A DNA stretch of 64,000 nucleotides from a virus (Duplodnaviria; Heunggongvirae; Uroviricota; Caudoviricetes), in the IMG/VR virus record IMGVR_UViG_3300023371_004649; one strand, 5' to 3'. The notes under the pieces were generated by a model, which worked only from the letters and a program-made list of their open reading frames with translations, was not told where the DNA came from and did no database searches. Positions 229 to 49,422 of the stretch are shown one piece after another; position 1 is the first letter of the stretch; each line of letters starts with the position of its first letter. The translations under genes were made by a program, and so were the position numbers.

Positions 229-930
229 TTATATGGTTCTGCTATATTCTAATAGCCCTTTTGTGTGTTTTAACTTAGCAAGGGCTCTCTTTTCTATCTG
301 TTGAACTCTTTGTTTTGAAACCCCAAGTTTTAAACTAATTTCATCGTATGTCACTAATACTCCTGGATTAGAAAAATATCGTTCAAAAATAACGTCTCTT
401 TCTCTTGGTTTAAGAGTAGCAATAGCCTGTCTAACCATAATTTCAATATCTTCCTTCTCAATATTTTTATCAAGAGGCTCATTATCCGTAGCTAAAGTAT
501 CTATTAGACAACCATCTTCATCAGTATCTCCTATAGGAGCATATAAAGAAACATTTTCGGGGTATAAAACACCTATAACATCACTTACTTTTAGCCCCAA
601 TTTTTCAGCTATCATGTCAGGAGTAGCAACAACTCCACTTTCCTCAATCTCTCGTCTGGTAGCATAAATCTTTCCTCTGTTTTTCTTTGCAGCTCTTGAA
701 ACATTCAAATTAGATTCTATATATCGCTGCATTTTTTGTTTAATCCACCAAGTGGCATATGTACTAAAAGCATTCCCCATTTCTGGGTCGAATTTTTCGC
801 TTGCTCGAATTAGCCCCAGTACTCCTTCCTGAAATAAATCATCATACTCCAAATTCGATTTTGATGAATATTCATATGCTAATTTTCGTACCAGACCTAA
901 ATTTTCTTCTACAAGTGAAGTATTTTGCAT
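229..930 (-). CDS. RNA polymerase sigma factor, sigma-70 family (group 3 / SigF-SigG-like, 233 aa)
   Basis: Region 2 motif FSTYATWWIKQ and a region 4.2 HTH (LSLKLGVSKQRVQQIEKRALAKLK). RBS AAGGAGAG. The conserved TATGTTATAAT promoter lies upstream on the minus strand. Confidence 0.75.
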   Translation of the reverse strand: MQNTSLVEENLGLVRKLAYEYSSKSNLEYDDLFQEGVLGLIRASEKFDPEMGNAFSTYATWWIKQKMQRYIESNLNVSRAAKKNRGKIYATRREIEESGVVATPDMIAEKLGLKVSDVIGVLYPENVSLYAPIGDTDEDGCLIDTLATDNEPLDKNIEKEDIEIMVRQAIATLKPRERDVIFERYFSNPGVLVTYDEISLKLGVSKQRVQQIEKRALAKLKHTKGLLEYSRTI

Positions 931-3432: not shown

Positions 3433-4851
3433 TTGAAAAAATTTATGTTGATTTTACCTATAATAATTGTTTTAGTAATATGGTTTATCCCAGCTAAAGA
3501 ATCTTCTATCGAAGAATTACAAACAGGAGAAATTATTGAGGAAGAAATCGTTGATAAATTGGCCGAAGCTGCATCAGATAACGAAATAGAAACAGTAAAA
3601 AAAGAAATCCCCAGAAAAGAAAAGCTAATAATTAAAACTCCTATAATCAAGAACTTGACGAATAACAAAAAAGTCGATTTTAAAACATTTAATCCTTCGC
3701 ATAATTTATTGGTAAGTAATGCCCTAAAACAAGAGCATGAAACTCCGTCCAATTTTTCATTCAACGAAAATAATAATTGGTCTTTAGACTTTCTTATTTG
3801 GTTAATACATCAAACAAATAAAAATACTCCTAATTATATAAAAACTGATACGTTTAGAAATTACGAAGAATTTTATGAATATATAGCAATGCATCCCAAT
3901 TATTATCCAGGAAATAAATCATGTATCCCAGATATAGGAGATTTTATTATATATGACAATAATTTAGATGGATATTTTGACGAAATTTCTATTGTCTCAA
4001 GCTATTCAAATAATAAAATAACTGATATCTCAGGTAATAGATGGTGCGAAAAACACTCCCAATATGAAGTGATTACTTATACTCAAGATATTAATAATAA
4101 ACATATTTTAGGTATCTACAAACCACAATATAATCTAACTCGATTAGACGATTTTCACGACATTGAAAAAATAGGATTAACCTTTAACGGAGTAGATACC
4201 GTTGTCCCAATAACAAAGGAAGAATACGTAAAAGTATTAGCAGAAAACGGGATAGAACTCATTGCCAGATATATTAACCCAGAAGGAAGAACCCCTTTGA
4301 GTATAGAAGAAGTAAAGCTGTTTTCTAAATACGGAATTAGAACAATGATGATATACCAAATTAATAAATCTGACCCATATAAAGGTTATGACACAGGTTA
4401 CGAATTTGGAACAAAAGCTTTAGAATATGCTCAAAATTTAAAAGCCCCTAAAGGTATGCCAATATTCTTTTGTTGTGATTGCAATAACAATTTTGCAAGT
4501 TTTGCAAAAGTAGGAGAATTTATAAATGGCGTTAAAGATGCTATGAACGGAGAATATACCGTTGGTCTATATGGTGGATTTTATACCACAGAAGCCTTGC
4601 ATAATTCGGGCGTTATAGACGCTTATTGGCAATGTTGGGGATTTAGTGACAGATATTTATCAGACAATTACGATATTATCCAATATACAACTGGAAGATA
4701 TTTTTTTAACGAAATCCCATACCAGTTTGACGCAAATAATGTAAAAAATATTGAAAAAATCTCTTTTATTTTGGAGGACGAAAATGGAAGGATTGAAAAA
4801 TTGCCCATTTTGCAACGGGACGGCGAGAAAATTCTCATTGAGGACCGTTAA
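3433..4851 (+). CDS. membrane-anchored putative cell-wall hydrolase (glycoside-hydrolase-like DUF1906/Rv2525c-like C-terminal domain, possible CHAP-like N-terminal part)
   Basis: N-terminal TM helix. The C-terminal region (GVDTVVPITKEEYVKVLAENGIELIARYINPEG...IRTMMIYQ) fits the Rv2525c-like glycoside-hydrolase-like pattern. TTG start with RBS AGAGAGG. Confidence 0.4.
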   Translation: MKKFMLILPIIIVLVIWFIPAKESSIEELQTGEIIEEEIVDKLAEAASDNEIETVKKEIPRKEKLIIKTPIIKNLTNNKKVDFKTFNPSHNLLVSNALKQEHETPSNFSFNENNNWSLDFLIWLIHQTNKNTPNYIKTDTFRNYEEFYEYIAMHPNYYPGNKSCIPDIGDFIIYDNNLDGYFDEISIVSSYSNNKITDISGNRWCEKHSQYEVITYTQDINNKHILGIYKPQYNLTRLDDFHDIEKIGLTFNGVDTVVPITKEEYVKVLAENGIELIARYINPEGRTPLSIEEVKLFSKYGIRTMMIYQINKSDPYKGYDTGYEFGTKALEYAQNLKAPKGMPIFFCCDCNNNFASFAKVGEFINGVKDAMNGEYTVGLYGGFYTTEALHNSGVIDAYWQCWGFSDRYLSDNYDIIQYTTGRYFFNEIPYQFDANNVKNIEKISFILEDENGRIEKLPILQRDGEKILIEDR

Positions 4852-4993
4852 TTATATACATAAAGCCACATATGCCGCAGAAGTAGGCTGTGACAAATGT
4901 AACGCATTGATGATAGGTACAGGTTTAACTCCTGAGGAGGCCTGGAAAAATGCGTATATATCTTGGAATAAAAGAGTTAAGCCAGGGAAATAA
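4784..4993 (+). CDS. Lar-family restriction alleviation protein-like (69 aa)
   Basis: NCPFCNG zinc-ribbon motif and C-terminal EEAWKNAYISWNKR, typical of Lar/Ral-like small proteins. Internal ATG at 4784 with RBS GGAGGA. Overlaps the 3' end of the upstream gene. Confidence 0.5.
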   Translation: MEGLKNCPFCNGTARKFSLRTVNYIHKATYAAEVGCDKCNALMIGTGLTPEEAWKNAYISWNKRVKPGK

Positions 4994-6354: not shown

Positions 6355-6388
6355 CATGGTATACAATAATTGTATACCATGTTTTTTC
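6355..6388 (+). terminator. rho-independent terminator
   Basis: catggtatacaa-taat-tgtataccatg hairpin followed by TTTTTTC. Confidence 0.55.
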
Positions 6389-6408
6389 TTATAGAAGGGG
6401 GTTTATAT

Positions 6409-7122
6409 ATGTCAATATTCCTATCATCTGTGTCGATAGTTACAGGCTTAATTTTTTCTAAGTTATGTTCGTTAGAAAAATTTAATTTTAAAGATTTAAA
6501 TAAAATCAAAAAAATAAAAACAAAAGTAGTTTTAAGTGAAACCATCCCAAATGGAGATGATGATAGCTATCCTGTTTATTACAACAAATATGAATTTGAA
6601 TCGAAAGAAAATAAAAATAATATTTCTGATATCTCAAATAAAAAGTTACTCCCAGGAGACGAGTATTCTTTTTATGTTATAAAGAATAAAGATAAGTATG
6701 AAATTATAAACATAGAAGATAGAGATAGAAAAATTAAAAATCTTTTATATTCAATATTCTTTTTTTCAGTTGGAATCTTAGGAATAATATCAAAACTTCA
6801 TCCAACAACAAAACCAATGATTGATAATTTTATTTTTGTACCAGGCAGCATTTTCATTATTTCTGCAATTGTTGGACAAATAGTTACCAACACTATTTCT
6901 AATTCAATAAAAAACAAAAATACAGAATTGATTGACGCTAAAGTCGTTGATTTTGAAATACATTATAATGACAACTCAAAAGTGTGGAATCCAATTTGCG
7001 AATATAGAAGAAATGGTAAAATTGAAAGATATACAGACAAATCTTTTGATGGCAACTCTCACTACAAAAAATGGGATAGAATTAAAATTAATATCCCAAA
7101 AGAAGCAGTAAAAGCTAATTAA
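6409..7122 (+). CDS. membrane protein, unknown function
   Basis: Several hydrophobic segments; RBS GAAGGGGG before the ATG at 6409. Confidence 0.45.
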   Translation: MSIFLSSVSIVTGLIFSKLCSLEKFNFKDLNKIKKIKTKVVLSETIPNGDDDSYPVYYNKYEFESKENKNNISDISNKKLLPGDEYSFYVIKNKDKYEIINIEDRDRKIKNLLYSIFFFSVGILGIISKLHPTTKPMIDNFIFVPGSIFIISAIVGQIVTNTISNSIKNKNTELIDAKVVDFEIHYNDNSKVWNPICEYRRNGKIERYTDKSFDGNSHYKKWDRIKINIPKEAVKAN

Positions 7123-7180
7123 TATTGTTATACCCAATTATACCCACCGCCAATGAGATACAAAGGGGTATAATAGAAAA

Positions 7181-7213
7181 ACTCTCATCCAACTGGATGA
7201 GAGTTTTATTTTT
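7181..7213. terminator. bidirectional terminator
   Basis: actctcatcc-aactg-gatgagagt hairpin flanked by T-runs, between convergent genes. Confidence 0.5.
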
Positions 7214-8270
7214 AGCCGCAAGTGCCACTAAAAGAGCCACAACGACAAGATGAATAAGAGATTCCGCAACTGGAACCAATCCCACAACTCGAACTGGGAA
7301 TTTTAGTGGGATGAATAGTCGGCAACCCACAACCCTGACGTACGCCACAACTGCTACCAGTGAAAACTACAGAATCGTCAGACTTCTTAGGCTTAGAAGA
7401 ATCCTGGGCAGCTTCGTTGAAATAAGCATCTTTCTTAGCCTTTTTAGCAGAAGCCGCTGTAGGAATCAAACCGTCGAGGTCAGAAATGGGCTTTTTATCC
7501 CAATCGTATGCAACGAAACCATCAGGGAAGATGATAATATCGTTGATAATAACGGTATTGCCCACTTTCAGACTACTCTTTTCGAGACCACGATGGAAAG
7601 CAATGTTTTCTACGAACTTTACGGTGTCGCAAACATCACAGAACCCATGAGATGCAAATTCGTAATTATCAAAAAGATAATCAAGAATATTATCTCCAGA
7701 CATAGCATGAAGAGTTTCAGGCGTAGTCTTACGAAAATCCCTACGGAAACAAACTGTGACATTGGAATCATCCTTCCAACGGTCGATAATTGCTTTCACA
7801 TCTTCAATAGTGGTTTTATCCGTAATAACGGCATTGACCTTGATTGGAACACTGATTCCCTTAAATGCCCAGTCATCCACAATGTTATGAAAAAGCTTGC
7901 AGTCTTCGCTAAAAGATGTAGCATGACGAGAAATGTTGATACCAGTGATATCCCCATCATCACACAGCTCCTGAATCCCAAAAAAATTTTTCTGGGGAAG
8001 AGTTGTGTTGACATAGACATTTTTGTGCTTAGCAATTTCAATCAACTCGTACAGCTTATGGATGTCTGCTGTAGGTTCCCCGCCAGTAAATACTACGTCG
8101 GTAATACCAGGAATCTTGATAGCCTGCTGGAGAGCTGCCTTAACGGCTTCAAAATCCATCTTTGTCTTTGCATATTCCTTCTTGCTCGTACAGAACGGAC
8201 AAGTGTTTTCGCAATCATAAGGAACATACACAGTAATTGCCATGTTTGAACGGCCAAACTTAAATTTCAT
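7212..8270 (-). CDS. radical SAM enzyme (NrdG/PflA-activase-like N-terminal domain) with a C-terminal low-complexity linker and a Cys/Gly/Ser-rich tail
   Basis: CENTCPFC (Cx3Cx2C) close to the N-terminus and a TGGEPT SAM-binding motif. A lysine-rich linker precedes a tail SSCGVRQGCGLPTIHPTKIPSSSCGIGSSCGISYSSCRCGSFSGTCG. RBS AAAGAGG. Own promoter and terminator. Confidence 0.65.
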   Translation of the reverse strand: MKFKFGRSNMAITVYVPYDCENTCPFCTSKKEYAKTKMDFEAVKAALQQAIKIPGITDVVFTGGEPTADIHKLYELIEIAKHKNVYVNTTLPQKNFFGIQELCDDGDITGINISRHATSFSEDCKLFHNIVDDWAFKGISVPIKVNAVITDKTTIEDVKAIIDRWKDDSNVTVCFRRDFRKTTPETLHAMSGDNILDYLFDNYEFASHGFCDVCDTVKFVENIAFHRGLEKSSLKVGNTVIINDIIIFPDGFVAYDWDKKPISDLDGLIPTAASAKKAKKDAYFNEAAQDSSKPKKSDDSVVFTGSSCGVRQGCGLPTIHPTKIPSSSCGIGSSCGISYSSCRCGSFSGTCG

Positions 8271-8369
8271 ATTTTTATACCTCTTTCTTATTTTTTAGCC
8301 ATTTTTATTTTTTGCTTGATAATATATTATATGAATTACCAATAAATAATATATTTTAGATTTTTTATT

Positions 8370-8410
8370 TTGCACAAAGAAAAGGTTCTCATCAATTGAT
8401 GAGAACCTTG
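8370..8410 (-). terminator. rho-independent terminator
   Basis: aaggttctcatc-aatt-gatgagaacctt hairpin followed by a T-run on the minus strand. Confidence 0.5.
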
Positions 8411-8415
8411 ATTTA

Positions 8416-8889
8416 TTAGACGCTAAGAGGAATCTGAGGCATACCATACAAAATGGAACCAGTAGCCTCATGTCTGCCTTCTAAGGCATAGTCATCATCC
8501 TCATCAATATCGTCTTCATAACTGCCCCAAAAATCTTCTTCGAACCAGTTATCGTTTAGCAGCATTGCCGCAAAAAACAGCGCCTGATACTTTTCATAAT
8601 CTTCAGGACTTACATCGTGAGCCAAAAACTCAAGCTGAGAGCTTGTGCCACCCACATTACTAATACACATCTCTTTCCCAGAGAATTTTGCAAGATATGC
8701 CTTTGCTAGAGCGGGAGTAATAACTCCAGAACGCAATAGCACATCAGCGAACTTATCAGCGGTGTACCCCTGAGTCAAATATACGTCAAACACGGATTCA
8801 ACGTCGTCATCAACATCTTCCCACGCATAGTAACATATAAAAGTATATGCGTCCTGAATACTCTTAATTGTGTCTTCACAAAAGAACAT
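8416..8889 (-). CDS. hypothetical acidic protein (157 aa); last gene of a four-gene minus-strand operon
   Basis: ORF 12 nt after the NUDIX gene; acidic C-terminus. Confidence 0.5.
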   Translation of the reverse strand: MFFCEDTIKSIQDAYTFICYYAWEDVDDDVESVFDVYLTQGYTADKFADVLLRSGVITPALAKAYLAKFSGKEMCISNVGGTSSQLEFLAHDVSPEDYEKYQALFFAAMLLNDNWFEEDFWGSYEDDIDEDDDYALEGRHEATGSILYGMPQIPLSV

Positions 8890-8901
8890 AATATATCCTC
8901 C

Positions 8902-9471
8902 TCAAATGTTAAGCATTTCGTTAGCCCAAAGATAAAGAAGTAACTGAGTTCTTGCAGCACACATTTCGGTTTTAAGTAACTCCTTTACCTCTTCCTTAGA
9001 ATACCAACCAGGCTCAATTTCTTCAAATTCATTATTGTTACCACCAAATTCTCCTTCAGCAATACCAATAATAAACTTGCTTTTTTCGTCGGACATACCA
9101 ACGGCACTAAAGGATTCCCCAAGAGTATGGTTAATAGAAACGAGCTTTAAGCCAGTTTCTTCCCATAATTCTCGAGCTGCGGAATCCATAAAATCCTCAC
9201 CAGGGTCAATTAGCCCCGCAGGAAAATTCATTACATAGCGATTGACCGCAAGCCGAAATTCACGATTTACACAAATTTTCGACTTGTCTTTGTTAAAGAC
9301 GACAATAACCACAGCATCTGTCTTGCCATTCTTCAGGTCTTCGACGGTAAGATTGTGATTATGACTTACAATCTCATAGATTTTCCGATTACCATTTCTG
9401 GTAACATAATTGAGATTGTACTTAGATAGAAACTCTCCCTGAGATACCTTTTCAATGTTTTTCAATTCCAT
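8902..9471 (-). CDS. NUDIX hydrolase (ADP-ribose pyrophosphatase-like)
   Basis: Nudix box GLIDPGEDFMDSAARELWEETGL. Confidence 0.7.
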   Translation of the reverse strand: MELKNIEKVSQGEFLSKYNLNYVTRNGNRKIYEIVSHNHNLTVEDLKNGKTDAVVIVVFNKDKSKICVNREFRLAVNRYVMNFPAGLIDPGEDFMDSAARELWEETGLKLVSINHTLGESFSAVGMSDEKSKFIIGIAEGEFGGNNNEFEEIEPGWYSKEEVKELLKTEMCAARTQLLLYLWANEMLNI

Positions 9472-9474
9472 CTG

Positions 9475-10212
9475 TTAATTCCTCCAATAACAATACATAC
9501 ACTTATACGGGCATTGCTTTTTTTCAGCAAGTAATTCGGTTTTTGCAGAACAACACAAACAACCCTTTCTCTGATAGCCTGCATTATCCACATTATCCAC
9601 TTTAAGCCCAAGCATTACGATATCCTTTTCACTTACGCAGCCAGACTGAAGAGTTTCTTGAAGCTTACCCTCAGCACAAGACTCAATCACAATATGTGGA
9701 TGTCTTGCTTTTACATCTCGCAACATATCGTCTGTCGCAAACATCATGTTATAAGATGCAGTGAAATAATCTCCATAAGGAGGGTCAATATTATTCTCTC
9801 TGAACCTCTCTCGAACATGTGGATACGCATCCATTATACTTACACGAAAACGAGAAAACCCACGGGCAATAGCTTCTTCAAATACTCTTTCTGCACGTTT
9901 TAAGCCCTTCTCGGTAGGAATAATTGGGTCGATACGAATAACTACCCTCTCAGGAGAAACCCCCGCAGAAAGCAATTTCTGAGCTTGTGAGAGCTGGTCA
10001 GTATATCGAGGAATATTAGGCTCTACAACAGTCTGACCATAACCTGTACAAGTAACATGAAAAATCATCTTATTAAAATAGGGACAAGCAGACTCAATTA
10101 CTTTGTCAGTAAGATTCTTAGTAATGAGAATTACTCCATCCATCTTATCCATCTGTTCAACCCAAGAAAAATCAATCGAAGGGTCGCCACGTTCAGTAAT
10201 TCCAATCTTCAT
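9475..10212 (-). CDS. putative Fe-S protein with a C-terminal CPYKCMYCYW cluster (DUF1848-like)
   Basis: C-terminal Cx3Cx2C plus further conserved Cys; 3 nt gap to the downstream gene. Confidence 0.45.
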   Translation of the reverse strand: MKIGITERGDPSIDFSWVEQMDKMDGVILITKNLTDKVIESACPYFNKMIFHVTCTGYGQTVVEPNIPRYTDQLSQAQKLLSAGVSPERVVIRIDPIIPTEKGLKRAERVFEEAIARGFSRFRVSIMDAYPHVRERFRENNIDPPYGDYFTASYNMMFATDDMLRDVKARHPHIVIESCAEGKLQETLQSGCVSEKDIVMLGLKVDNVDNAGYQRKGCLCCSAKTELLAEKKQCPYKCMYCYWRN

Positions 10213-10606: not shown

Positions 10607-10869
10607 ATTTTTTCCTCCAATTTGTTTTTATTTTGGTACTTTATATTATACTTTATAAGGTCTTATTTATATATCTATTATAACATATTTAGCCTTAAAA
10701 GTCAAATAAACAATCCATTTTTTCATTACTTTTTCTCGTTTATTTTTAATAAAAATAGCCAAAATCAACCCCAATATTTTAACATTTATACAAAAATGTA
10801 AAGATAGTGACCTTTACACTTTTCTTTCGAGCAATAAAGTGTTATTATATACCCAAAGGAGATGATTTT

Positions 10870-11601
10870 GTGCAAAAATTTATAATTCTTATACTCACAG
10901 TATTACTTTCTATAAACAATTTGTCTATCGCCCCGATAATAACTGAAAACACAATCGAAACACCATTGGCCGTTTCTGAATTTGAATATTCAGAAGCTCC
11001 TCAAAAAATAAAAAACATCAAAAAAAGCAGAGGCCCAATTCCCGTAGTAAAAAAGAAAAATATTATAAAAACTGACGATATTTTATTTATTGGTAATTCT
11101 CTTATATATGGTATAGATTCTGTAACAGATGAACATACTTTTATATCCAAAATAGGGATAACCATAAAAGGATTAAGAGAAGATGGTTATTACGAAAATC
11201 TTCAGTCCCATTCTTTAGATACCGTCATAATTGAAGTTGGAACAAATGAATTAGGATGGTTTGGTGAAAATAATTTCAAAGACGAATTCGATATATTAAT
11301 CAATAAAATAAAAACCCAAAACTATAAAAGCAATATAATATTAATGACTATCCCACCCGTTTCTGAAAACAGAGACCTCACAGACGAGTATTTTAATAAT
11401 AAAAATGTAGAAAAATATAACCAATACATTAAAGATGTTGCGACAAAATATAATTTAATGTTAATAGATGTTCATGAAATATTAGGAGATGTTTTATCCC
11501 CTTATGATACAGATGATGGAATTCATTTAAGAGGCCATAAATACGAAGAATGGTACCAATTCATACTTGATAAAATAGAAGAAACCAATAAACAACAATA
11601 G
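10870..11601 (+). CDS. secreted SGNH/GDSL-family hydrolase
   Basis: GTG start after RBS AAAGGAGATGA; signal peptide; FIGNSLIYG (block I) and DGIHL (block V). Confidence 0.5.
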   Translation: MQKFIILILTVLLSINNLSIAPIITENTIETPLAVSEFEYSEAPQKIKNIKKSRGPIPVVKKKNIIKTDDILFIGNSLIYGIDSVTDEHTFISKIGITIKGLREDGYYENLQSHSLDTVIIEVGTNELGWFGENNFKDEFDILINKIKTQNYKSNIILMTIPPVSENRDLTDEYFNNKNVEKYNQYIKDVATKYNLMLIDVHEILGDVLSPYDTDDGIHLRGHKYEEWYQFILDKIEETNKQQ

Positions 11602-11675
11602 TTTTAATTATTCTTGATTTTTGCATAAAAATATGTTATAATATAAAAAAGATTATAAAAAGAGGAGAATTAGCA

Positions 11676-12287
11676 ATGTATTACAAACAAATTATCGTTG
11701 TTAATAAAGAATTAGATATGAGTAAAGGCAAAATGGCAGCTCAGGTAAGCCATGCGTCTATGGCATTTTTAACTCGTATGATTCAGCGAAATACCACGAG
11801 AAAATTAGAACATGTTTACCCTGCATGGTCAATCGACCCCAAAAGCAATAAAAAAGAGCCACAAAGATATAGAAGAGAAGATTTAGATAATTGGGCATTA
11901 GAAGCAAGGATTCGGGGAGATGCTTATTTCTGCGCCAAACCCGTTGACCCCAATAACCCATACGGAGAACTCCAACTTTGTGAACAGAATTATCATTACG
12001 AAACAACATTTTCCATTGATAAAGATTTATATGAACAGTGGATGGGCGGTTTATTCACAAAGGTAATTCTTTCTGCCAAAAACGAAAATCAAATGGTTAA
12101 AATTATAGAAAAAGCTAAAGAAGCAGGCCTTATTGAAGGAGAAGATTTTTTTTGTATCAGAGATGCTTGTTTAACAGAGCTAACACCTGACGAAACAGGT
12201 ACACGTTGGACTTGTATTGGATTTGCTCCTATGGATGCCGAAAAAATTGACCCAATCACAAAAAAACTACAACTATTTAAGGAGTGA
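11676..12287 (+). CDS. peptidyl-tRNA hydrolase, PTH2 (archaeal/eukaryotic) family
   Basis: N-terminal IIVVNKELDMSKGKMAAQVSHASMAF matches the Pth2 signature (..DL.MGKGKIAAQC.HA). RBS AAGAGGAG. Confidence 0.6.
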   Translation: MYYKQIIVVNKELDMSKGKMAAQVSHASMAFLTRMIQRNTTRKLEHVYPAWSIDPKSNKKEPQRYRREDLDNWALEARIRGDAYFCAKPVDPNNPYGELQLCEQNYHYETTFSIDKDLYEQWMGGLFTKVILSAKNENQMVKIIEKAKEAGLIEGEDFFCIRDACLTELTPDETGTRWTCIGFAPMDAEKIDPITKKLQLFKE

Positions 12288-17153: not shown

Positions 17154-18214
17154 TTAGGCCGCTGAACTTTTACCATTCAGCGCAGGTGCCTGCATTATAT
17201 TAATTGCACCTACTATATCTCTATGCTGCTTATAACCACAACTACATTTATATAATCTGTCTTTAGCTTTATTATTTGCCCCACAACTTGGGCATTTTTG
17301 GCTTGTGTAGGCTGGATTTACTATTTCTACTTGTATGCCTACTAGTTGTGCTTTATATATTATGTAGTTCTGCAATCTATAAAATGACCAATTGTGCAAA
17401 CTCTTATTGTTTTTACGACTTGTTCTTGTCGTGGCCCTTATATTAGCCAGTTGCTCTAGTTTAATTATACTTACATTATTTTCTAAAGCAAAATTAACTA
17501 CCTCTCGGCTTATTTTGTGGTCTTGGTCATTCATCCAGTCGTTTTCTTTGTGACCTATACGTTTGATTGCTTGTGGTTTCTTTAGTTTGCCGAGTTGCTT
17601 TCTCTTTGTAGCAAATTGACGTTTCTTATGCTTAATCATACGTCCATTACCTACAAATTTAGTTTTGTTATTACTTACTCGGCAAACAGCTGGACATTTA
17701 ATACCTAAATCTACTCCCATTATAACGTCCCCAGAAACGACTGGAGTTTCTTTCTTTTCGTAGGTTATAAATGCCATATATTTATTATTTTTTCTACATA
17801 CTCTTAATAAACCTAAACTATCTTTGTTTTCTAGAAGAGTATTGTAGATTTCAGAGGTTATTTTTGCTGGTATTTTAGTTTTTCTAGATTTAGACTCAAT
17901 CCATAAAGGAAAAGCTATTCCGTCTTCGAATATACTGTAGTTTTGATTGTTTATATACATAGCAGGTTTCTTTAAAACGCTATTCTTTTTTTTTTGTCTT
18001 TATAAATAGACTTAGCATCTCTAATACACTGATTTAGAATAGCAGCTGGAAGTGGTGCATTTACAGTTGCTGTTGTCAGTGGGTCCCACTTCAATTGGCC
18101 ATGTTGGTAGTCAACTATACTATTTACAGTAGCTATATAATCAGAAGTCATAGAATCCAAAATAGAAGCAATAAATTTATTAGGATTTAGTTTCAATTTA
18201 ACAGTTATAACCAA
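17154..18214 (-). pseudogene. tnpB: tnpB (IS605 OrfB) split by a frameshift at a poly-A10 tract
   Basis: N-terminal fragment 17972..18214 (MVITVKLKLNPNK...) and C-terminal fragment 17154..17960 join to about 348 aa. The two frames are separated at A10 (T10 on the plus strand, about 17986-17995). Confidence 0.55.
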
Positions 18215-26382: not shown

Positions 26383-26658
26383 TTAATTTTCTTCATCAAT
26401 GCAACCACAACTGATGAGTTGCCCGCCACAAACGGGACAACGTTCCATATCACAGCCAGGGTGATGATAATGACCTCGAGTAGCGCCACAATCTCCACAG
26501 CGCTCGGATTCGGTTTCATAGAAATAAGAATCTTCGAAATCATCATTCGCACAACCCATTTTGATAGGTTCGTACTCCTTTCCGTTATGCTTAATAGGAA
26601 TTCGAACACATCCCTTTGCGGTCAACATATCTTTCCCACAATATTCGCACTTTGCCAT
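26383..26658 (-). CDS. Cys-rich zinc-ribbon protein (91 aa)
   Basis: CEYCGK...CGDCG...CPVCGG..CGC; RBS GGGAGGAA; terminator downstream. Confidence 0.45.
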   Translation of the reverse strand: MAKCEYCGKDMLTAKGCVRIPIKHNGKEYEPIKMGCANDDFEDSYFYETESERCGDCGATRGHYHHPGCDMERCPVCGGQLISCGCIDEEN

Positions 26659-26740
26659 AATATATTCCTCCCTTGTTTTATTTTCTAAGTAGTGCTAATG
26701 AATTATATTATTTTTTTAGTTAAAGAAAAACCTAAAAACA

Positions 26741-30684: not shown

Positions 30685-30767
30685 GCTGGTGTGGTGGAAT
30701 GGCAGACACGCTAGTCTTAGGAACTAGTGCCTTGTGCGTGTGGGTTCGAGTCCCACCACCAGCACCA
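30685..30767 (+). tRNA. tRNA-Leu (anticodon TAG), type II, CCA encoded
   Basis: Acceptor gctggtg/caccagc; D-arm gtggtggaatggcagacac; anticodon stem ctagt/actag with loop cttagga; long variable arm; T-arm gggttcgagtccc. Confidence 0.8.
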
Positions 30768-30773
30768 TAATAT

Positions 30774-30860
30774 GCCGCAGTGGTGGAATAGGCAGACACC
30801 AGGGACTTAAAATCCCTTGCTGGCAACAGCGTGCGGGTTCGAGTCCCGCCTGCGGCACCA
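30774..30860 (+). tRNA. tRNA-Leu (anticodon TAA), type II, CCA encoded
   Basis: Acceptor gccgcag/ctgcggc; anticodon loop cttaaaa; long variable arm. Confidence 0.8.
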
Positions 30861-31027
30861 AAACAAGTGCTATGAATCCAAAACCTCAGACTTTGAGATG
30901 TCCTCAATGCGCACGTAATTGAGATGGTTACCATACAGATTCGCTTTAGTTGAATGGAGTTAAAAGAACAGCTTGTTTTCCTTGTATAATGGGTGCCGTT
31001 TTAAAACCGCTCATTATACGCATATAT

Positions 31028-31104
31028 AGGCCCTTAGCTCAGTCGGTTAGAGCTAGCGCCTCATAAGCGCTCGGTCCTGGGTTCGAGCCCCAGAGGGCCT
31101 ACCA
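31028..31104 (+). tRNA. tRNA-Met (anticodon CAT; elongator or Ile-lysidine cannot be told apart), CCA encoded
   Basis: Acceptor aggccct/agggcct; anticodon stem agcgc/gcgct with loop ctcataa; own TGnTATAAT -10 element (ttgtataatg) at about 30988. Confidence 0.75.
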
Positions 31105-36609: not shown

Positions 36610-36685
36610 GAGGGTATAGCTCAGTAGGTAGAGCACTTGCCTTTTAAGCAAGGAGTCGAGGGTTCGAGCCCCTCTACCCTCACCA
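36610..36685 (+). tRNA. tRNA-Lys (anticodon TTT), CCA encoded
   Basis: Acceptor gagggta/taccctc; anticodon stem cttgc/gcaag with loop cttttaa; T-arm gagggttcgagcccctc. Confidence 0.8.
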
Positions 36686-46485: not shown

Positions 46486-47052
46486 CTATTCTTGATAGCA
46501 ATCAAGAATTTCTTTAATTTCTTTAATGCTAGAAATTTCTTCAATGTTATCTAATAAAGACCAAATATCTGAAGAAAATATAGGCATCACCATTGGTTTT
46601 TTTCGCATTTTCTGTTTCAAATTGGTAGTGAAATAATTTGTTTGCCCATCAATAAAAGCAAATGAACCATATTTGTCAAGTTCATCTTCATAATATCTCT
46701 GGTGCATAAACTTATATTTATATTTTTCATTATCTTTTATCGCAAATAAAAAAATAAATCCACCAACATAATATGAACCATCTTCTTTCCACTCTCCATA
46801 ACTAAAACTCCCAATATACATATCTTGTCTTACAATTCTGTCATAGAAAGAATGCTCTAAAGAAATCGCCTCATCGTCACCGAAATCTTTTTCTAACAAT
46901 TCACAATTTTTAAAGAAATCACTGTTTAAAAGAGAATCTAAATTTCCACGAACATTCTTCGCAATGTTAAAAATATCTTTTTTTGTTAAATCAACATCTG
47001 CAATTACAGTTTTTATCTTTTTATTTCTACAACATTCAATTTTAATTTTCAT
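46486..47052 (-). CDS. hypothetical protein (188 aa)
   Basis: ATG at 47052 with RBS GAGGTGAG; the longer track ORF has no RBS. Confidence 0.4.
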   Translation of the reverse strand: MKIKIECCRNKKIKTVIADVDLTKKDIFNIAKNVRGNLDSLLNSDFFKNCELLEKDFGDDEAISLEHSFYDRIVRQDMYIGSFSYGEWKEDGSYYVGGFIFLFAIKDNEKYKYKFMHQRYYEDELDKYGSFAFIDGQTNYFTTNLKQKMRKKPMVMPIFSSDIWSLLDNIEEISSIKEIKEILDCYQE

Positions 47053-47157
47053 AAGCTCACCTCGTTTGGAAACAAAAATATTAACCAAAAATATATATTT
47101 TTATTATAACATATCTCGGAAATAATGTATAGACCATTATAGTATAACAACAAAATA

Positions 47158-47200
47158 TAATAACAAAGGAATGCCCCTCGTTTAAACGAGGGGCATTCCT
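47158..47200 (-). terminator. rho-independent terminator
   Basis: ggaatgcccctcg-tttaaa-cgaggggcattcc hairpin. Confidence 0.5.
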
Positions 47201-47205
47201 ATCTC

Positions 47206-49422
47206 TTATACAGAAATCATTTCTTTAACTTTTTCAAAAGAAACAATCTCATTTTTAATCTTCATTACATAGTGTTCGTTTTTAAGAATTTCCTCATTAA
47301 TAACTGCATCAGCAATATTGTCTTCAACAAGAGTCTGGATTTCTCGCTTAATATTACGTGCCCCCATCTTTTCATCAAAACCATTAGTAACTACAGCATC
47401 GAGAACAGATTCGTCAAAAGATACGTTAATTTCATACTGCTTAATCCGCTCAGAAACTTCATTAAGCATATGAGAAGCAATAACCTTACAAGAATCTTCA
47501 CCCAGCCCCTTGAAAACAACAACGTTATCAATACGATTTAGGAACTCGGGACGGAAATGTTCTTTAATCGCATTCATAATAATTTCCTTATTATCCTTGT
47601 TTTTTTCTTCAGCAGAAACCCCACCAAAGCCAATAGAAGCTCTCTTAGAAGAAATCTGGCTGGAACCAATATTACTCGTAATAACGATTACAGCGTTCTT
47701 AAAATCAACCTTGACACCACGGGCATCGGTAAGAGAACCTTCATCAAGAATCTGAAGAAGAATATCACTTACTTCGGGATGTGCCTTTTCGATTTCATCG
47801 AAAATGATAACGCTGTAAGGATTTCTCTTAATCTTGTCAGTAAGCTGACCACCTTCATCGAAACCAATATAACCAGGAGGAGAACCAATAATCTTAGAGA
47901 CACTATGCTTTTCCATGTACTCGGACATATCAAGCTTAATAAGGCTCTTTTCAGTACCATTTAGATATGTAGCAATCGTCTTACCAAGCTCGGTCTTACC
48001 TACGCCAGTAGGACCAACAAATAGAAAAGAACCAATAGGACGATTAGGGTTACGAAGCCCAGCGCGGCTACGCTTTAGAGCCTTAGACACTACAGAAACA
48101 GCCTCTTCCTGACCAATAACCTTGGAATTGAGTTCATTTTCAAGATTAGCAAGACGCTTATTTTCATTAGAAGTAAGGTCAGAAACGTTGATACCAGTAG
48201 TCTTCTGAATAGTCATGCAGATATCATTTTTAGTCACAATATCCTTACCTACAGCAGAAATACGAGCAGCAGTTTCATCACAAACAGTAATTGCCTTATC
48301 GGGTAAATAACGGTCAGTAATATAACGCTTAGAAAGAGTAACACAAGCTTCCAAAGCATCCTTTTCAATAGTAACTCCATGGAACTTCTCATAAGTATCA
48401 CAAAGCCCACGCATCATTTCAATAGTATCTTCCACAGTAGGTTCATCAATAAGAACACTCTGCATACGACGAGCAAAAGCAGCATCACGCTCGATACTCT
48501 TCTTATATTCGGCAGTAGTAGTAGCACCAATTAACTGAAGAGTACCACGAGCAAGAGCAGGCTTCAGAATATTAATAGCGTCAGAGCCACCTTCAGAAGT
48601 AGCCCCACTATTTACAAGAGAATGGATTTCATCAATAAACATGATAATATTCTTACTCTTTTCAACTTCATTAATAAGCCCATTCATACGCTCTTCGAAA
48701 TCACCACGATAACGAGTACCAGCAAGAACAGAAGCCATATTAACAGAATAAATAACCTTATTTTTCAGACGAAGAGGAACTTTTCCATCTGCAATACGCT
48801 GAGCAAGACCTTCAACAATAGCAGTTTTGCCAACGCCAGCTTCGCCAATTAGACAAGGGTTCTTTTTGTTCTTACGAAGTAGAATATGAACTACACGCTC
48901 AATTTCTTCTTCTCTGCCAATAACAGGTTCAAGTTCCTTATTGATAGCCATTTCGGTAAGATTCTTACCAAACTTAGCAAGCGATTCAGGAAGAATCATA
49001 TCAATCTTTTCATTGATTTCATCAAGAAGAGCATGGAATGCGCAATCTTCGTTGTTGAAAAGTTCATCAACAAGATTAGACCAATCAACCATTGTGTCTT
49101 CTTCTTTTGCTTCACTAATTACTCTATCAAAAATCTCTTCTAGCTCTTCAGAAATGTTATCAGCAGTAAGATAATCCTTAGATTCTCTGCCAGTATATTT
49201 GAAAGAAGGGTTATCTTCCAAATACTTAGCAAGATACTTTAGAACATATTCATCAGTAATACCCTGTTTAGCGAGCTTCTTCCCCATCTGAGTATCAAAT
49301 CGCAGAAAAGCATAAAGGAAGTGTTCGCTACCAAGATAATTATATCTAAGATGCTCCGCACAAGCAATAGCTGCATCAAGAAGCATCTGAGCACTCTTTG
49401 TAAAAATTCTAATCTTTAACAT
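47206..49422 (-). CDS. Clp/Hsp100-family AAA+ unfoldase (ClpC/ClpE-like; two AAA modules plus Clp_N)
   Basis: Clp_N repeats (FTKSAQMLLDAAIACAEHLRYNYLGSEHFLYAFL); Walker A GEAGVGKTAIVEGLA and GPTGVGKTELGKTIA; 738 aa. No clpP in the window. Confidence 0.8.
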   Translation of the reverse strand: MLKIRIFTKSAQMLLDAAIACAEHLRYNYLGSEHFLYAFLRFDTQMGKKLAKQGITDEYVLKYLAKYLEDNPSFKYTGRESKDYLTADNISEELEEIFDRVISEAKEEDTMVDWSNLVDELFNNEDCAFHALLDEINEKIDMILPESLAKFGKNLTEMAINKELEPVIGREEEIERVVHILLRKNKKNPCLIGEAGVGKTAIVEGLAQRIADGKVPLRLKNKVIYSVNMASVLAGTRYRGDFEERMNGLINEVEKSKNIIMFIDEIHSLVNSGATSEGGSDAINILKPALARGTLQLIGATTTAEYKKSIERDAAFARRMQSVLIDEPTVEDTIEMMRGLCDTYEKFHGVTIEKDALEACVTLSKRYITDRYLPDKAITVCDETAARISAVGKDIVTKNDICMTIQKTTGINVSDLTSNENKRLANLENELNSKVIGQEEAVSVVSKALKRSRAGLRNPNRPIGSFLFVGPTGVGKTELGKTIATYLNGTEKSLIKLDMSEYMEKHSVSKIIGSPPGYIGFDEGGQLTDKIKRNPYSVIIFDEIEKAHPEVSDILLQILDEGSLTDARGVKVDFKNAVIVITSNIGSSQISSKRASIGFGGVSAEEKNKDNKEIIMNAIKEHFRPEFLNRIDNVVVFKGLGEDSCKVIASHMLNEVSERIKQYEINVSFDESVLDAVVTNGFDEKMGARNIKREIQTLVEDNIADAVINEEILKNEHYVMKIKNEIVSFEKVKEMISV

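Follow-up and report, generated by a model that had tools for sequence, protein, structure and literature searches.

Radical SAM enzymes that are paired with small Cys-rich peptides are a known source of unusual chemistry. In sactipeptide and ranthipeptide systems, radical SAM maturases such as CteB, PapB, AlbA and SkfB act on Cys-rich precursors such as SCIFF, and maturases of this type (PapB, StsB, CteB) form thioether bonds between a Cys sulfur and a carbon of another residue, with an N-terminal RiPP recognition element (RRE) that binds a leader peptide. SPASM-domain maturases carry a C-terminal domain with a seven-Cys motif that binds two auxiliary clusters, whereas twitch-domain enzymes (MoaA, BtrN, SkfB) have an abbreviated C-terminal domain in which a beta-hairpin is flanked by Cys ligands of one auxiliary cluster. 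In borosins of the OphMA type the modifying enzyme carries its own core peptide at its C-terminus and modifies it autocatalytically (PMC7878506), and fused and split versions (SonM/SonA) coexist in related systems (10.1101/2021.12.24.474128; PMC8429565). The borosin enzyme, however, is a conventional SAM-dependent alpha-N-methyltransferase. Disordered C-terminal extensions that end in a closely spaced Cys pair and swing into an active site are found as redox shuttles in class I ribonucleotide reductase and thioredoxin reductase (GCUG).

Here we describe a radical SAM protein with a Cys-Gly-repeat tail encoded by a large gut phage-like element (Caudoviricetes, IMG/VR record IMGVR_UViG_3300023371_004649), of which a stretch of 64,000 nucleotides, referred to as the window, was analysed. 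A reading made from the sequence alone had proposed a 352-aa radical SAM enzyme joined through a Lys-rich linker to a Cys/Gly/Ser-rich tail of the composition of ranthipeptide or sactipeptide cores, and this observation is confirmed. The features of the locus are as follows.

7212..8270, minus strand: complete gene for the 352-aa radical SAM protein with linker and Cys-Gly tail; the stop codon is 7212-7214
7467..8270, minus strand: conserved catalytic core, residues 1-268, a predicted partial TIM-barrel radical SAM fold followed by a beta-hairpin domain
8190..8213, minus strand: C20-x3-C24-x2-C27, the ligands of the SAM-binding [4Fe-4S] cluster
8073..8084, minus strand: G63-G64-E65-P66, the GGE-type SAM-binding motif
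7593..7640, minus strand: C211-x2-C214, a predicted beta-hairpin, then H226, a candidate incomplete (three-ligand) auxiliary metal or Fe-S site
7362..7466, minus strand: Lys/Ser/Ala-rich linker, residues 269-303, predicted disordered
7215..7361, minus strand: Cys-Gly repeat tail, residues 304-352, with seven Cys, the fused peptide partner
8281..8290, minus strand: Shine-Dalgarno-like AAGAAAGAGG, 10 nt upstream of the ATG
7178..7207, no strand assigned: bidirectional terminator-like hairpin just after the stop codon, shared with the convergent gene 6370..7122
8382..8409, no strand assigned: terminator-like hairpin between the upstream DUF1848-NUDIX-157 aa operon and this gene

The motifs named in the sequence-only reading (C20-ENT-C24-PF-C27, T62-GGEP-T67 and the linker AASAKKAKKDAYFNEAAQDSSKPKKSDDS) are present, but the tail has seven Cys (308, 314, 329, 335, 342, 344 and 351) and not the eight that were claimed; six of them are followed by Gly. 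Although terminator-like hairpins flank the gene and a good Shine-Dalgarno sequence precedes the ATG, no sigma-70-like promoter was found on the minus strand between 8271 and 8381, and the proposed own promoter is therefore unverified. The feature exceeds chance: of 1741 stop-to-stop segments in all six frames of the window, only three have 3 or more Cys-Gly in any 45 aa; this one has six and the other two are unrelated.

The protein belongs to the radical SAM superfamily by its Pfam PF04055 match (37.6 bits against a cut-off of 29.5, E 3.2e-9), by the CxxxCxxC motif near the N-terminus (present in 148-149 of 149 family sequences), and by the GGE-type motif, which is invariant in 149 sequences, and the predicted partial TIM-barrel fold. 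In Pfam at E<=1 only Radical_SAM and Fer4_12 match. The absence of a SPASM domain, as claimed from the sequence, is thus correct at this threshold; there is no SPASM or Fer4_14 hit and, in place of the seven-Cys motif, only C211, C214 and H226 are conserved in the core beyond the SAM cluster. The radical SAM motif begins at residue 20, so there is no N-terminal domain, and no Pfam hit to an RRE was found. Scores fall far below the cut-offs of every maturase family, e.g. 18.7 against 340 for PapB and 15.9 against 625 for StsB. The same holds for MoaA (36.3 against 325, 30.8 against 231 and 28.4 against 284; the protein ends in Cys-Gly after a Cys-rich tail, not in the C-terminal Gly-Gly of MoaA), for viperin (NF038283, 24.1 against 180; the PDB viperin hits have E about 2e-4) and for the NrdG-type models of anaerobic RNR and PFL activating enzymes (27 against 131, 19 against 152 and 16 against 126). 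The peptide epimerase YydG/EpeE (TIGR04078) scores 22.6 against a cut-off of 300 over the generic N-terminal half only, and its substrate is unrelated and has no Cys-Gly repeats.

A search for homologues returned 814, and the identical 352-aa protein recurs on at least 24 contigs. A diverse family alignment was too divergent for scans of metagenomes and genomes, whereas a narrower one worked. No DNA match was found among GenBank phages, a protein-level search of the same phages gave only two unannotated faecal phage contigs at about 30% identity, PHROGs gave generic “radical SAM” families only, and nothing above 21% identity was found among the BFVD viral structures. No Pfam, NCBIfam, PHROG or PDB match defines the family, and literature searches on it found no description. 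Its hundreds of members are currently labelled only “radical SAM protein” or “hypothetical”.

Within the core, C211, C214 and H226 are conserved at 94%, 92% and 98%, respectively. The C211-x2-C214...H226 motif is present in all 91 tail-bearing sequences and in all loci with a separate Cys-Gly peptide, whereas it is replaced by C-x3-C or by no Cys in a clade that lacks the peptide and includes a chromosomal Oscillospiraceae group. The predicted strands are 205-211, 214-219 and 223-228. The pattern resembles FC-x2-C-x11-H-x-C in E. coli MoaA, although the profile alignment to that protein covers only residues 16-178, so that the C-terminal similarity remains a pattern resemblance in which the third ligand would be His. 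Metal binding at this site is inferred.

The sequence-only reading had set the conservation of the tail, or its existence as a separate small ORF in relatives, as the point to examine, and both turned out to be true. The tail is present in all close homologues and in 95 of 141 full-length representatives at 50% identity, that is about two thirds. Of about 350 tail Cys, 241 are followed by Gly and 72 are the C-terminal residue, together about 90%. The Cys number varies from 2 to 11 with a median of four, small residues flank each Cys, and the spacing ranges over 4-10 or more residues, with five the commonest. Both linker and tail have a pLDDT below 50, and AlphaFold did not dock the tail. The linker does not align between subfamilies and is the fastest-evolving segment (pN 0.36). 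In the tail pN is 0.24 with synonymous sites saturated (pS about 0.78) and all aligned Cys are kept, which indicates purifying selection weaker than that on the core.

Among clusters of loci at 70% identity, about 10 have a fused tail and about 11 have a separate Cys-Gly-rich ORF next to the enzyme gene. In most of the latter the ORF is on the same strand, either overlapping or within 30 nt downstream, about 470-490 nt downstream with one ORF between, or directly upstream; in one cluster the only such ORF lies on the opposite strand and abuts the stop of the enzyme gene. The background rate for such ORFs is about 2 in 1741 segments. The free-standing forms range from 46 aa to about 170 aa, and further Cys-Gly proteins of about 200-225 aa on the opposite strand have the Cys-Gly region N-terminal to an unrelated domain. 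Some separate peptides carry a conserved leader-like N-terminus, (S)KLLFIDSDDI..LSEAL..ALERRG, followed by an acidic linker and a Cys-Gly C-terminus, and some loci encode two Cys-Gly proteins. Fused and split forms interleave on a rough neighbour-joining tree. Most tail-less homologues with usable DNA context carry the peptide as a neighbouring gene, and the rest form one clade that also lacks the exact C-x2-C motif. There are exceptions, as one cluster (loci L023-26) keeps C-x2-C...H but shows no Cys-Gly ORF within 4 kb, and in two further clusters only some loci have one (L014/L039, relatives of L013, and L040/L041, relatives of L065). Repeated co-loss of motif and peptide was considered at first, but the peptide-less loci form one clade on the tree, so that the link between C-x2-C and the peptide rests on essentially one evolutionary split. 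It is weakened further by the chromosomal Oscillibacter and Dysosmobacter enzymes, which keep a C-x3-C pair without any peptide.

The interpretation given in the sequence-only reading is partly supported. The tail is a separate functional module fused to the enzyme and not drift, and it is not a SPASM or twitch domain or another conventional auxiliary-cluster domain, since it is predicted disordered, varies in Cys number and spacing, and can be a free-standing peptide. The resemblance to sactipeptide or ranthipeptide cores, however, is compositional only: among six tails and peptides scanned at E<=10 against the NCBIfam precursor models, the only hit was for one peptide to NF038108, “Cys-every-fifth RiPP peptide CefA” (E=2.3, 8 bits against a cut-off of 30), which is not a match although CefA is also a small Cys-periodic peptide and the commonest Cys-to-Cys spacing here is also five residues. 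A literature search on this peptide returned only irrelevant cephalosporin papers.

What the analysis establishes is that the gene is a natural fusion of two parts that many relatives encode as two adjacent genes, namely a radical SAM enzyme of an uncharacterised, mainly phage-borne family and a disordered polypeptide of [G/S][G/S]-Cys-Gly units that usually ends in Cys or Cys-Gly. Everything that concerns chemistry is inferred from architecture, including cleavage of SAM to the 5'-deoxyadenosyl radical, metal binding at the C211/C214/H226 site, thioether formation and the status of the tail as a substrate. In the mechanism we tentatively favour, the flexible linker of about 35 residues would let the tail reach the active site of its own or a neighbouring subunit, and a tail cysteine thiolate would dock at the C211-x2-C214...H226 site, which is proposed to hold an auxiliary Fe-S cluster or metal with one free coordination position. 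The 5'-deoxyadenosyl radical would then abstract a hydrogen from the bound Cys or from the Gly that follows it, giving a Cys-centred modification, most likely a thioether cross-link and less likely loss of sulfur. On this reading the protein would be a self-modifying, RiPP-like enzyme-substrate fusion that works as a self-contained module during infection. The architecture matches that of borosins, with the peptide module at the C-terminus of the enzyme and related systems in which the two are separate genes, but there is no sequence or fold relation and self-modification is here a hypothesis. In contrast to the sactipeptide and ranthipeptide systems, the peptide is fused to the enzyme or lacks a leader (apart from the leader-like N-termini of some separate peptides), its Cys are followed by Gly as a rule, no SPASM domain, RRE, conserved cleavage site, protease or exporter was found, and the context is phage, so this is not a classical secreted RiPP pathway.

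Three other roles were weighed against this one. The Cys-Gly polypeptide could be a consumable co-substrate whose cysteines donate sulfur, hydrogen atoms or electron pairs to a reaction of the core on another substrate, such as a nucleotide or nucleic acid, in parallel with the sacrificial cysteines of THI4 and LarE and the redox-shuttle tail of class I ribonucleotide reductase; a multi-Cys tail or an abundantly expressed separate peptide would allow several turnovers. We consider this less likely than the favoured mechanism, though a sacrificial-donor or redox-shuttle role is not excluded and is the strongest of the alternatives. Minimal tails are just a Cys pair at the extreme C-terminus behind a long disordered linker (e.g. 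SCGFRSC, YCGISSKVC and SCGGVIKNGC), as in the redox-shuttle tails, although in this different class of enzyme the Cys units are multiplied, hypervariable and can be a separate unfolded peptide. The free variation in Cys number fits this role, and the small flanking residues are expected for a thiol that must reach into a narrow site. The polar residues conserved in the core (S114, R115, N146, R176, H226, D244, D256, W257) are equally conserved in the clade without a peptide, which would fit a common non-peptide substrate with the peptide as an accessory. Genomic neighbours are often nucleotide or DNA metabolism genes (NUDIX, dUTPase, RecJ-like, Dam, helicase, NrdG-like and PRPP-synthetase-like), the top fold hits include the non-peptide enzymes MoaA, viperin, BlsE and GDGT-MAS, and there are weak sequence and fold similarities to MoaA and viperin, which act on nucleotides. 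However, no second substrate can be named, the leader-like regions and multiple Cys-Gly proteins per locus look more like precursors than reductants, known redox partners are folded CxxC proteins rather than low-complexity peptides, and the prevalence of Gly after Cys is not explained by thiol donation alone.

Less likely still, the tail or separate peptide may bind metal or Fe-S clusters without ever being modified, either completing the coordination of an auxiliary cluster at C211/C214/H226 or scavenging and delivering clusters to the enzyme. Cys followed by Gly is typical of metal-binding knuckles, short Gly-Cys-Gly type peptides can hold Fe-S clusters, the conserved core site offers only three ligands, the median tail has four Cys, and enzymes of this structural neighbourhood (MoaA, SkfB, anSME, PqqE) often carry auxiliary clusters. 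Yet many tails have only two Cys and others up to eleven, the sequence is hypervariable and disordered by prediction with no conserved spacing, the free-standing forms differ widely in size, and the known auxiliary-cluster domains (SPASM, twitch) are folded with fixed motifs, none of which is detected in Pfam at E<=1. This role is nevertheless not excluded. A neutral low-complexity extension or annotation artefact is very unlikely. Although the region is predicted disordered, composition-biased and fast-evolving, and no DNA tandem repeat underlies it, it is conserved across subfamilies below 50% identity with its Cys-Gly or terminal-Cys rule, pN is well below the saturated pS, the module persists as an independent adjacent gene in many lineages, and the identical protein recurs across contigs.

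It is possible, though less likely than not, that this is the first radical SAM enzyme covalently fused to its own ribosomal peptide substrate. The two-part module is widespread in large gut and rumen phages and would then perform new Cys/Gly-centred radical chemistry, such as Cys-to-neighbouring-Gly thioether rings, backbone cleavage at Cys-Gly or multi-shot sulfur donation, with the product used by the phage inside the infected cell rather than secreted. If the tail is a substrate, this is a new self-modifying radical SAM class and a new kind of phage-made peptide product; if it is a consumable sulfur or electron donor, it is a new solution to supplying a radical enzyme during infection. In either case a testable role is assigned to the family, and the Cys-Gly rule together with the fused and split gene forms gives a sharply defined and easily expressed test system in which one protein carries both enzyme and candidate substrate.

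No other gene is consistently linked to the pair, which is in this sense self-contained. A third conserved component was sought among the small neighbours, but the 157 aa protein of the window, the 156 aa protein of locus L006 and the 76 aa protein of locus L001 are not similar to one another and have no Pfam hits, and no Cys-Gly protein had a Pfam hit. A search of a 5.8-billion-protein set with a free-standing Cys-Gly peptide found only nine close relatives. In several split loci the peptide ORF lies in frame right after the stop codon of the enzyme, which suggested read-through or recoding. This was rejected, as the stop is TAA (TGA in one locus) followed within a few codons by an ATG in most of them, and several peptides there share the same leader-like N-terminus.

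The minus strand carries an intact ORF, 7212..8270, encoding a protein of 352 aa. The protein begins with a canonical radical SAM signature, C20-x3-C24-x2-C27, followed by TGGEP at residues 62-66. Pfam Radical_SAM scores 37.6 bits against a gathering score of 29.5, whereas no SPASM-type domain appears even at E<=1. Every named NCBIfam model scores an order of magnitude below its cut-off and matches only the N-terminal half, e.g. MoaA, PqqE, NrdG, HxsC, viperin, YydG and PapB. A linker follows after residue 268 or so, and residues 304-352 then hold seven cysteines, six of which are followed by Gly. The architecture described in the sequence-only reading was thus confirmed, linker included, although that reading had counted eight cysteines in the tail. 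Terminator-like hairpins lie just beyond both ends of the gene and a strong Shine-Dalgarno sequence precedes the ATG; however, no sigma-70-type promoter was detected upstream. Across all six frames of the 64-kb window, this segment has six Cys-Gly in 45 aa, and only two other segments, both unrelated, have 3 or more. The features of the gene, and a Cys-rich ORF picked up by the Cys-Gly scan, are as follows:

7212..8270, minus strand: ORF encoding the 352-aa radical SAM protein
7178-7207: terminator-like hairpin
8382-8409: terminator-like hairpin
26383-26694, minus strand: a roughly 100-aa Cys-rich ORF with CxxC-type pairs, for example CEYCG, CGDCG and CPVCGG, which looks like a zinc ribbon and is unrelated to the tail motif

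The tail is a conserved feature that follows a rule. A word-indexed search found 814 homologues, none with an informative name, and an exhaustive profile search found 165 clusters at 50% identity with E<=1e-30. In the close subfamily the core is highly conserved and the linker cannot be aligned, but the C-terminus always returns to SCG...GCG...CG...C. Among 141 full-length representatives, 95 carry such a tail with 2-11 Cys. Of roughly 350 tail cysteines, 241 are followed by Gly and 72 are the very last residue, and the two preceding positions are mostly Gly or Ser. Of the 95 tails, 72 end in Cys and 12 end in Gly. The commonest Cys-to-Cys spacing is five residues, with a range of 4-10 or more, and the shortest tails are a single Cys-Gly followed a few residues later by a C-terminal Cys. 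Against the 78%-identical relative at locus L004, synonymous sites are saturated (pS about 0.7-0.78), whereas pN is 0.06 in the core, 0.36 in the linker and 0.24 in the tail, and every aligned Cys is kept. No DNA tandem repeat underlies the tail.

More distant relatives (30-45% identity) on IMG/VR and metagenome contigs often lack the tail. The enzyme was located in 122 loci (numbered with the prefix L) using a core HMM, and every reading frame was scanned for Cys-Gly-rich segments. A separate Cys-Gly-rich ORF lies next to the enzyme gene in about 11 clusters at 70% identity, whereas about 10 clusters have the fused form. In most of the former the separate ORF is on the same strand, either overlapping the enzyme's stop or within 30 nt of it, about 470-490 nt downstream with one ORF between, or directly upstream. 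In the cluster of locus L013 the only such ORF is on the opposite strand, abutting the enzyme's stop. Apparent in-frame-stop cases were considered as read-through but are ordinary adjacent genes. On a rough neighbor-joining tree fused and split forms interleave, so the two states have interconverted several times.

The separate proteins come in several architectures. Some are bare peptides of 46-66 aa, such as MCGYSNYRYSSGCGSSGCGSSGCGGG..., while others have a conserved leader-like N-terminus, (S)KLLFIDSDDI..LSEAL..ALERRG, followed by an acidic stretch and a Cys-Gly C-terminus. In the split subfamily of loci L036, L037 and L053-L060, the partner peptides have a conserved leader-like N-terminus and the enzymes carry an extra Cys-free C-terminal extension of about 87 aa, which may form a recognition pair. 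Some rumen megaphage loci encode a second, larger Cys-Gly-rich protein on the opposite strand, with a recurring RLNECGG-type motif and an unrelated C-terminal domain of about 130 aa that has no Pfam match:

L007 7341-7958, minus strand: larger Cys-Gly-rich protein
L008 9168-9788, minus strand: larger Cys-Gly-rich protein
L013 8804-9481, minus strand: larger Cys-Gly-rich protein

None of the Cys-Gly proteins matches any Pfam model, and none of the six tails and peptides scanned matches an NCBIfam model.

Across 149 sequences, the conserved positions of the core beyond the SAM-binding motifs are N88/T89, S114/R115/H116, N146, R176, C211, C214, H226, D244 and D256/W257, whereas C174 is not conserved. 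C211-x2-C214 and H226 flank a predicted beta-hairpin. The pattern FC-x2-C-x11-H mirrors FC-x2-C-x11-H-x-C in E. coli MoaA, where that stretch binds a three-Cys auxiliary cluster with a free iron for substrate. However, the profile alignment does not reach this region, so this is a resemblance and not demonstrated homology. All 91 tail-bearing sequences and all loci with a separate peptide keep C-x2-C...H. The loci with neither tail nor peptide form one clade, in which the site is C-x3-C or has no Cys at all. There are exceptions in the other direction: loci L023-26 keep C-x2-C...H but show no Cys-Gly ORF within 4 kb, and in two further clusters, L014/L039 and L040/L041, only some loci have one. 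The peptide-less clade includes a chromosomal gene of Oscillibacter, Dysosmobacter and other Oscillospiraceae (55-65% GC), seen at loci L136 (3989-4876), L185 (about 3995-4876) and L131-L204. This gene lies next to FHA-FtsW/RodA and penicillin-binding proteins and is named by NCBI only as 'radical SAM protein'; it may hold the key to the chemistry of the core.

The analysis establishes that the enzyme and the Cys-Gly polypeptide form a dedicated pair, fused here, and that the tail is under selection for Cys followed by Gly or by the C-terminus, within a Gly/Ser-rich, disordered context. What the pair does, including any metal binding or radical chemistry, is inferred. These features describe a thiol that must thread into a confined site. 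The most likely event is thought to be that a tail cysteine binds the free position of a metal or Fe-S center at C211/C214/H226, after which the 5'-deoxyadenosyl radical would attack that Cys or the adjacent Gly and leave a Cys-centered modification. Gly has the most easily abstracted backbone hydrogen. In this view, which remains tentative, the protein is a self-modifying, RiPP-like fusion. The leader-like regions, the multiple peptides per locus, the hypervariability with a fixed motif and the peptide-modifying relatives are in favor of it.

Other explanations cannot be excluded. The peptide could instead be a consumable sulfur, hydrogen or electron donor for a reaction on another substrate. 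Although somewhat less likely, this would explain why the polar residues of the core are equally conserved in the peptide-less clade, and why minimal tails look like the Cys-pair redox tails of ribonucleotide reductase. A role as an Fe-S or metal-binding accessory is considered unlikely and is weakened by two-Cys tails, variable spacing and disorder, and a functionless tail is very improbable and is contradicted by the conservation data.

The module works most like sactipeptide and ranthipeptide systems, but it has no SPASM domain and no RRE, and it scores far below the cut-offs of those families. The interpretation in the sequence-only reading, of a tail with the composition of a RiPP core that is either a substrate fused to its enzyme or an unusual auxiliary-cluster or metal-binding tail, is only partly supported. 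The architecture most resembles that of borosins, where a methyltransferase carries and modifies its own C-terminal core peptide and split versions exist (PMC7878506; 10.1101/2021.12.24.474128; PMC8429565), although that enzyme is unrelated. No family model, solved structure, annotated phage protein or paper describing this family was found. Radical SAM enzymes with a Cys-rich peptide partner are already known; what differs here is a stripped-down, often fused, phage-borne form with its own sequence rule. Although its mechanism is uncertain, the system is unusually easy to test because one ORF supplies both parts.

The identical 352-aa protein occurs on at least 24 contigs of 50-205 kb from many samples, always in the order DUF1848, NUDIX, 157 aa and then this gene. 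The arrangement of the three upstream genes is syntenic in L004 and in loci L205 and L206. The DUF1848 protein has a C-terminal Cys cluster, CPYKCMYC, and the phage-like element therefore carries a second Fe-S-type enzyme of unknown function right next to the radical SAM gene. Neighbors of the module differ between lineages, and nothing except the Cys-Gly peptide is consistently linked to the enzyme; the small adjacent ORFs are unrelated to each other. In the 335-aa subfamily, on contigs of about 100 kb (locus L001, 8394-11977), the fused gene starts at the stop of a RecJ-like DHH nuclease gene and is followed by a 76-aa ORF and a Dam-type methyltransferase, with a RecD-like helicase nearby. 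In two large phage contigs of 154-412 kb (L006, 7435-11298; L011, 7442-10811), the enzyme-peptide pair lies among an isochorismatase/nicotinamidase-like gene, a PRPP-synthetase-like gene and a second, different radical SAM gene. An NrdG-like gene was also found among the neighbors.

Relatives sit on IMG/VR viral contigs of 20-415 kb. The window has 34% GC and carries tRNAs, a sigma factor, an endolysin-like hydrolase, a transposase, ABC-transporter-like genes and a Clp-like ATPase, several with strong PHROG matches. A large phage is the most economical, though not formally established, reading of the element, which may be a jumbo phage or another large mobile element; the ABC-transporter-like and ATPase genes are unusual cargo for a phage. 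The upstream operon and other features of the window are as follows:

8416-10212, minus strand: operon of three genes, a DUF1848 protein (9475-10212), a NUDIX hydrolase (8902-9471) and an acidic 157-aa protein with no family match (8416-8889)
229-930 (minus strand), 17154-17960 (minus strand) and 10807-12287 (plus strand): a sigma-factor-like gene, a transposase-like gene, a GDSL lipase-like gene and a PTH2 peptidyl-tRNA hydrolase
30685-31104 and 36610-36685, plus strand: tRNA genes, Leu(TAG), Leu(TAA) and Met(CAT) in a cluster, plus Lys(TTT)
42845-49422, minus strand: two adjacent ABC-transporter-like genes (591 and 586 aa) and a 738-aa Clp/AAA-type ATPase, all three with very strong PHROG matches (E 1e-130 to 1e-234)
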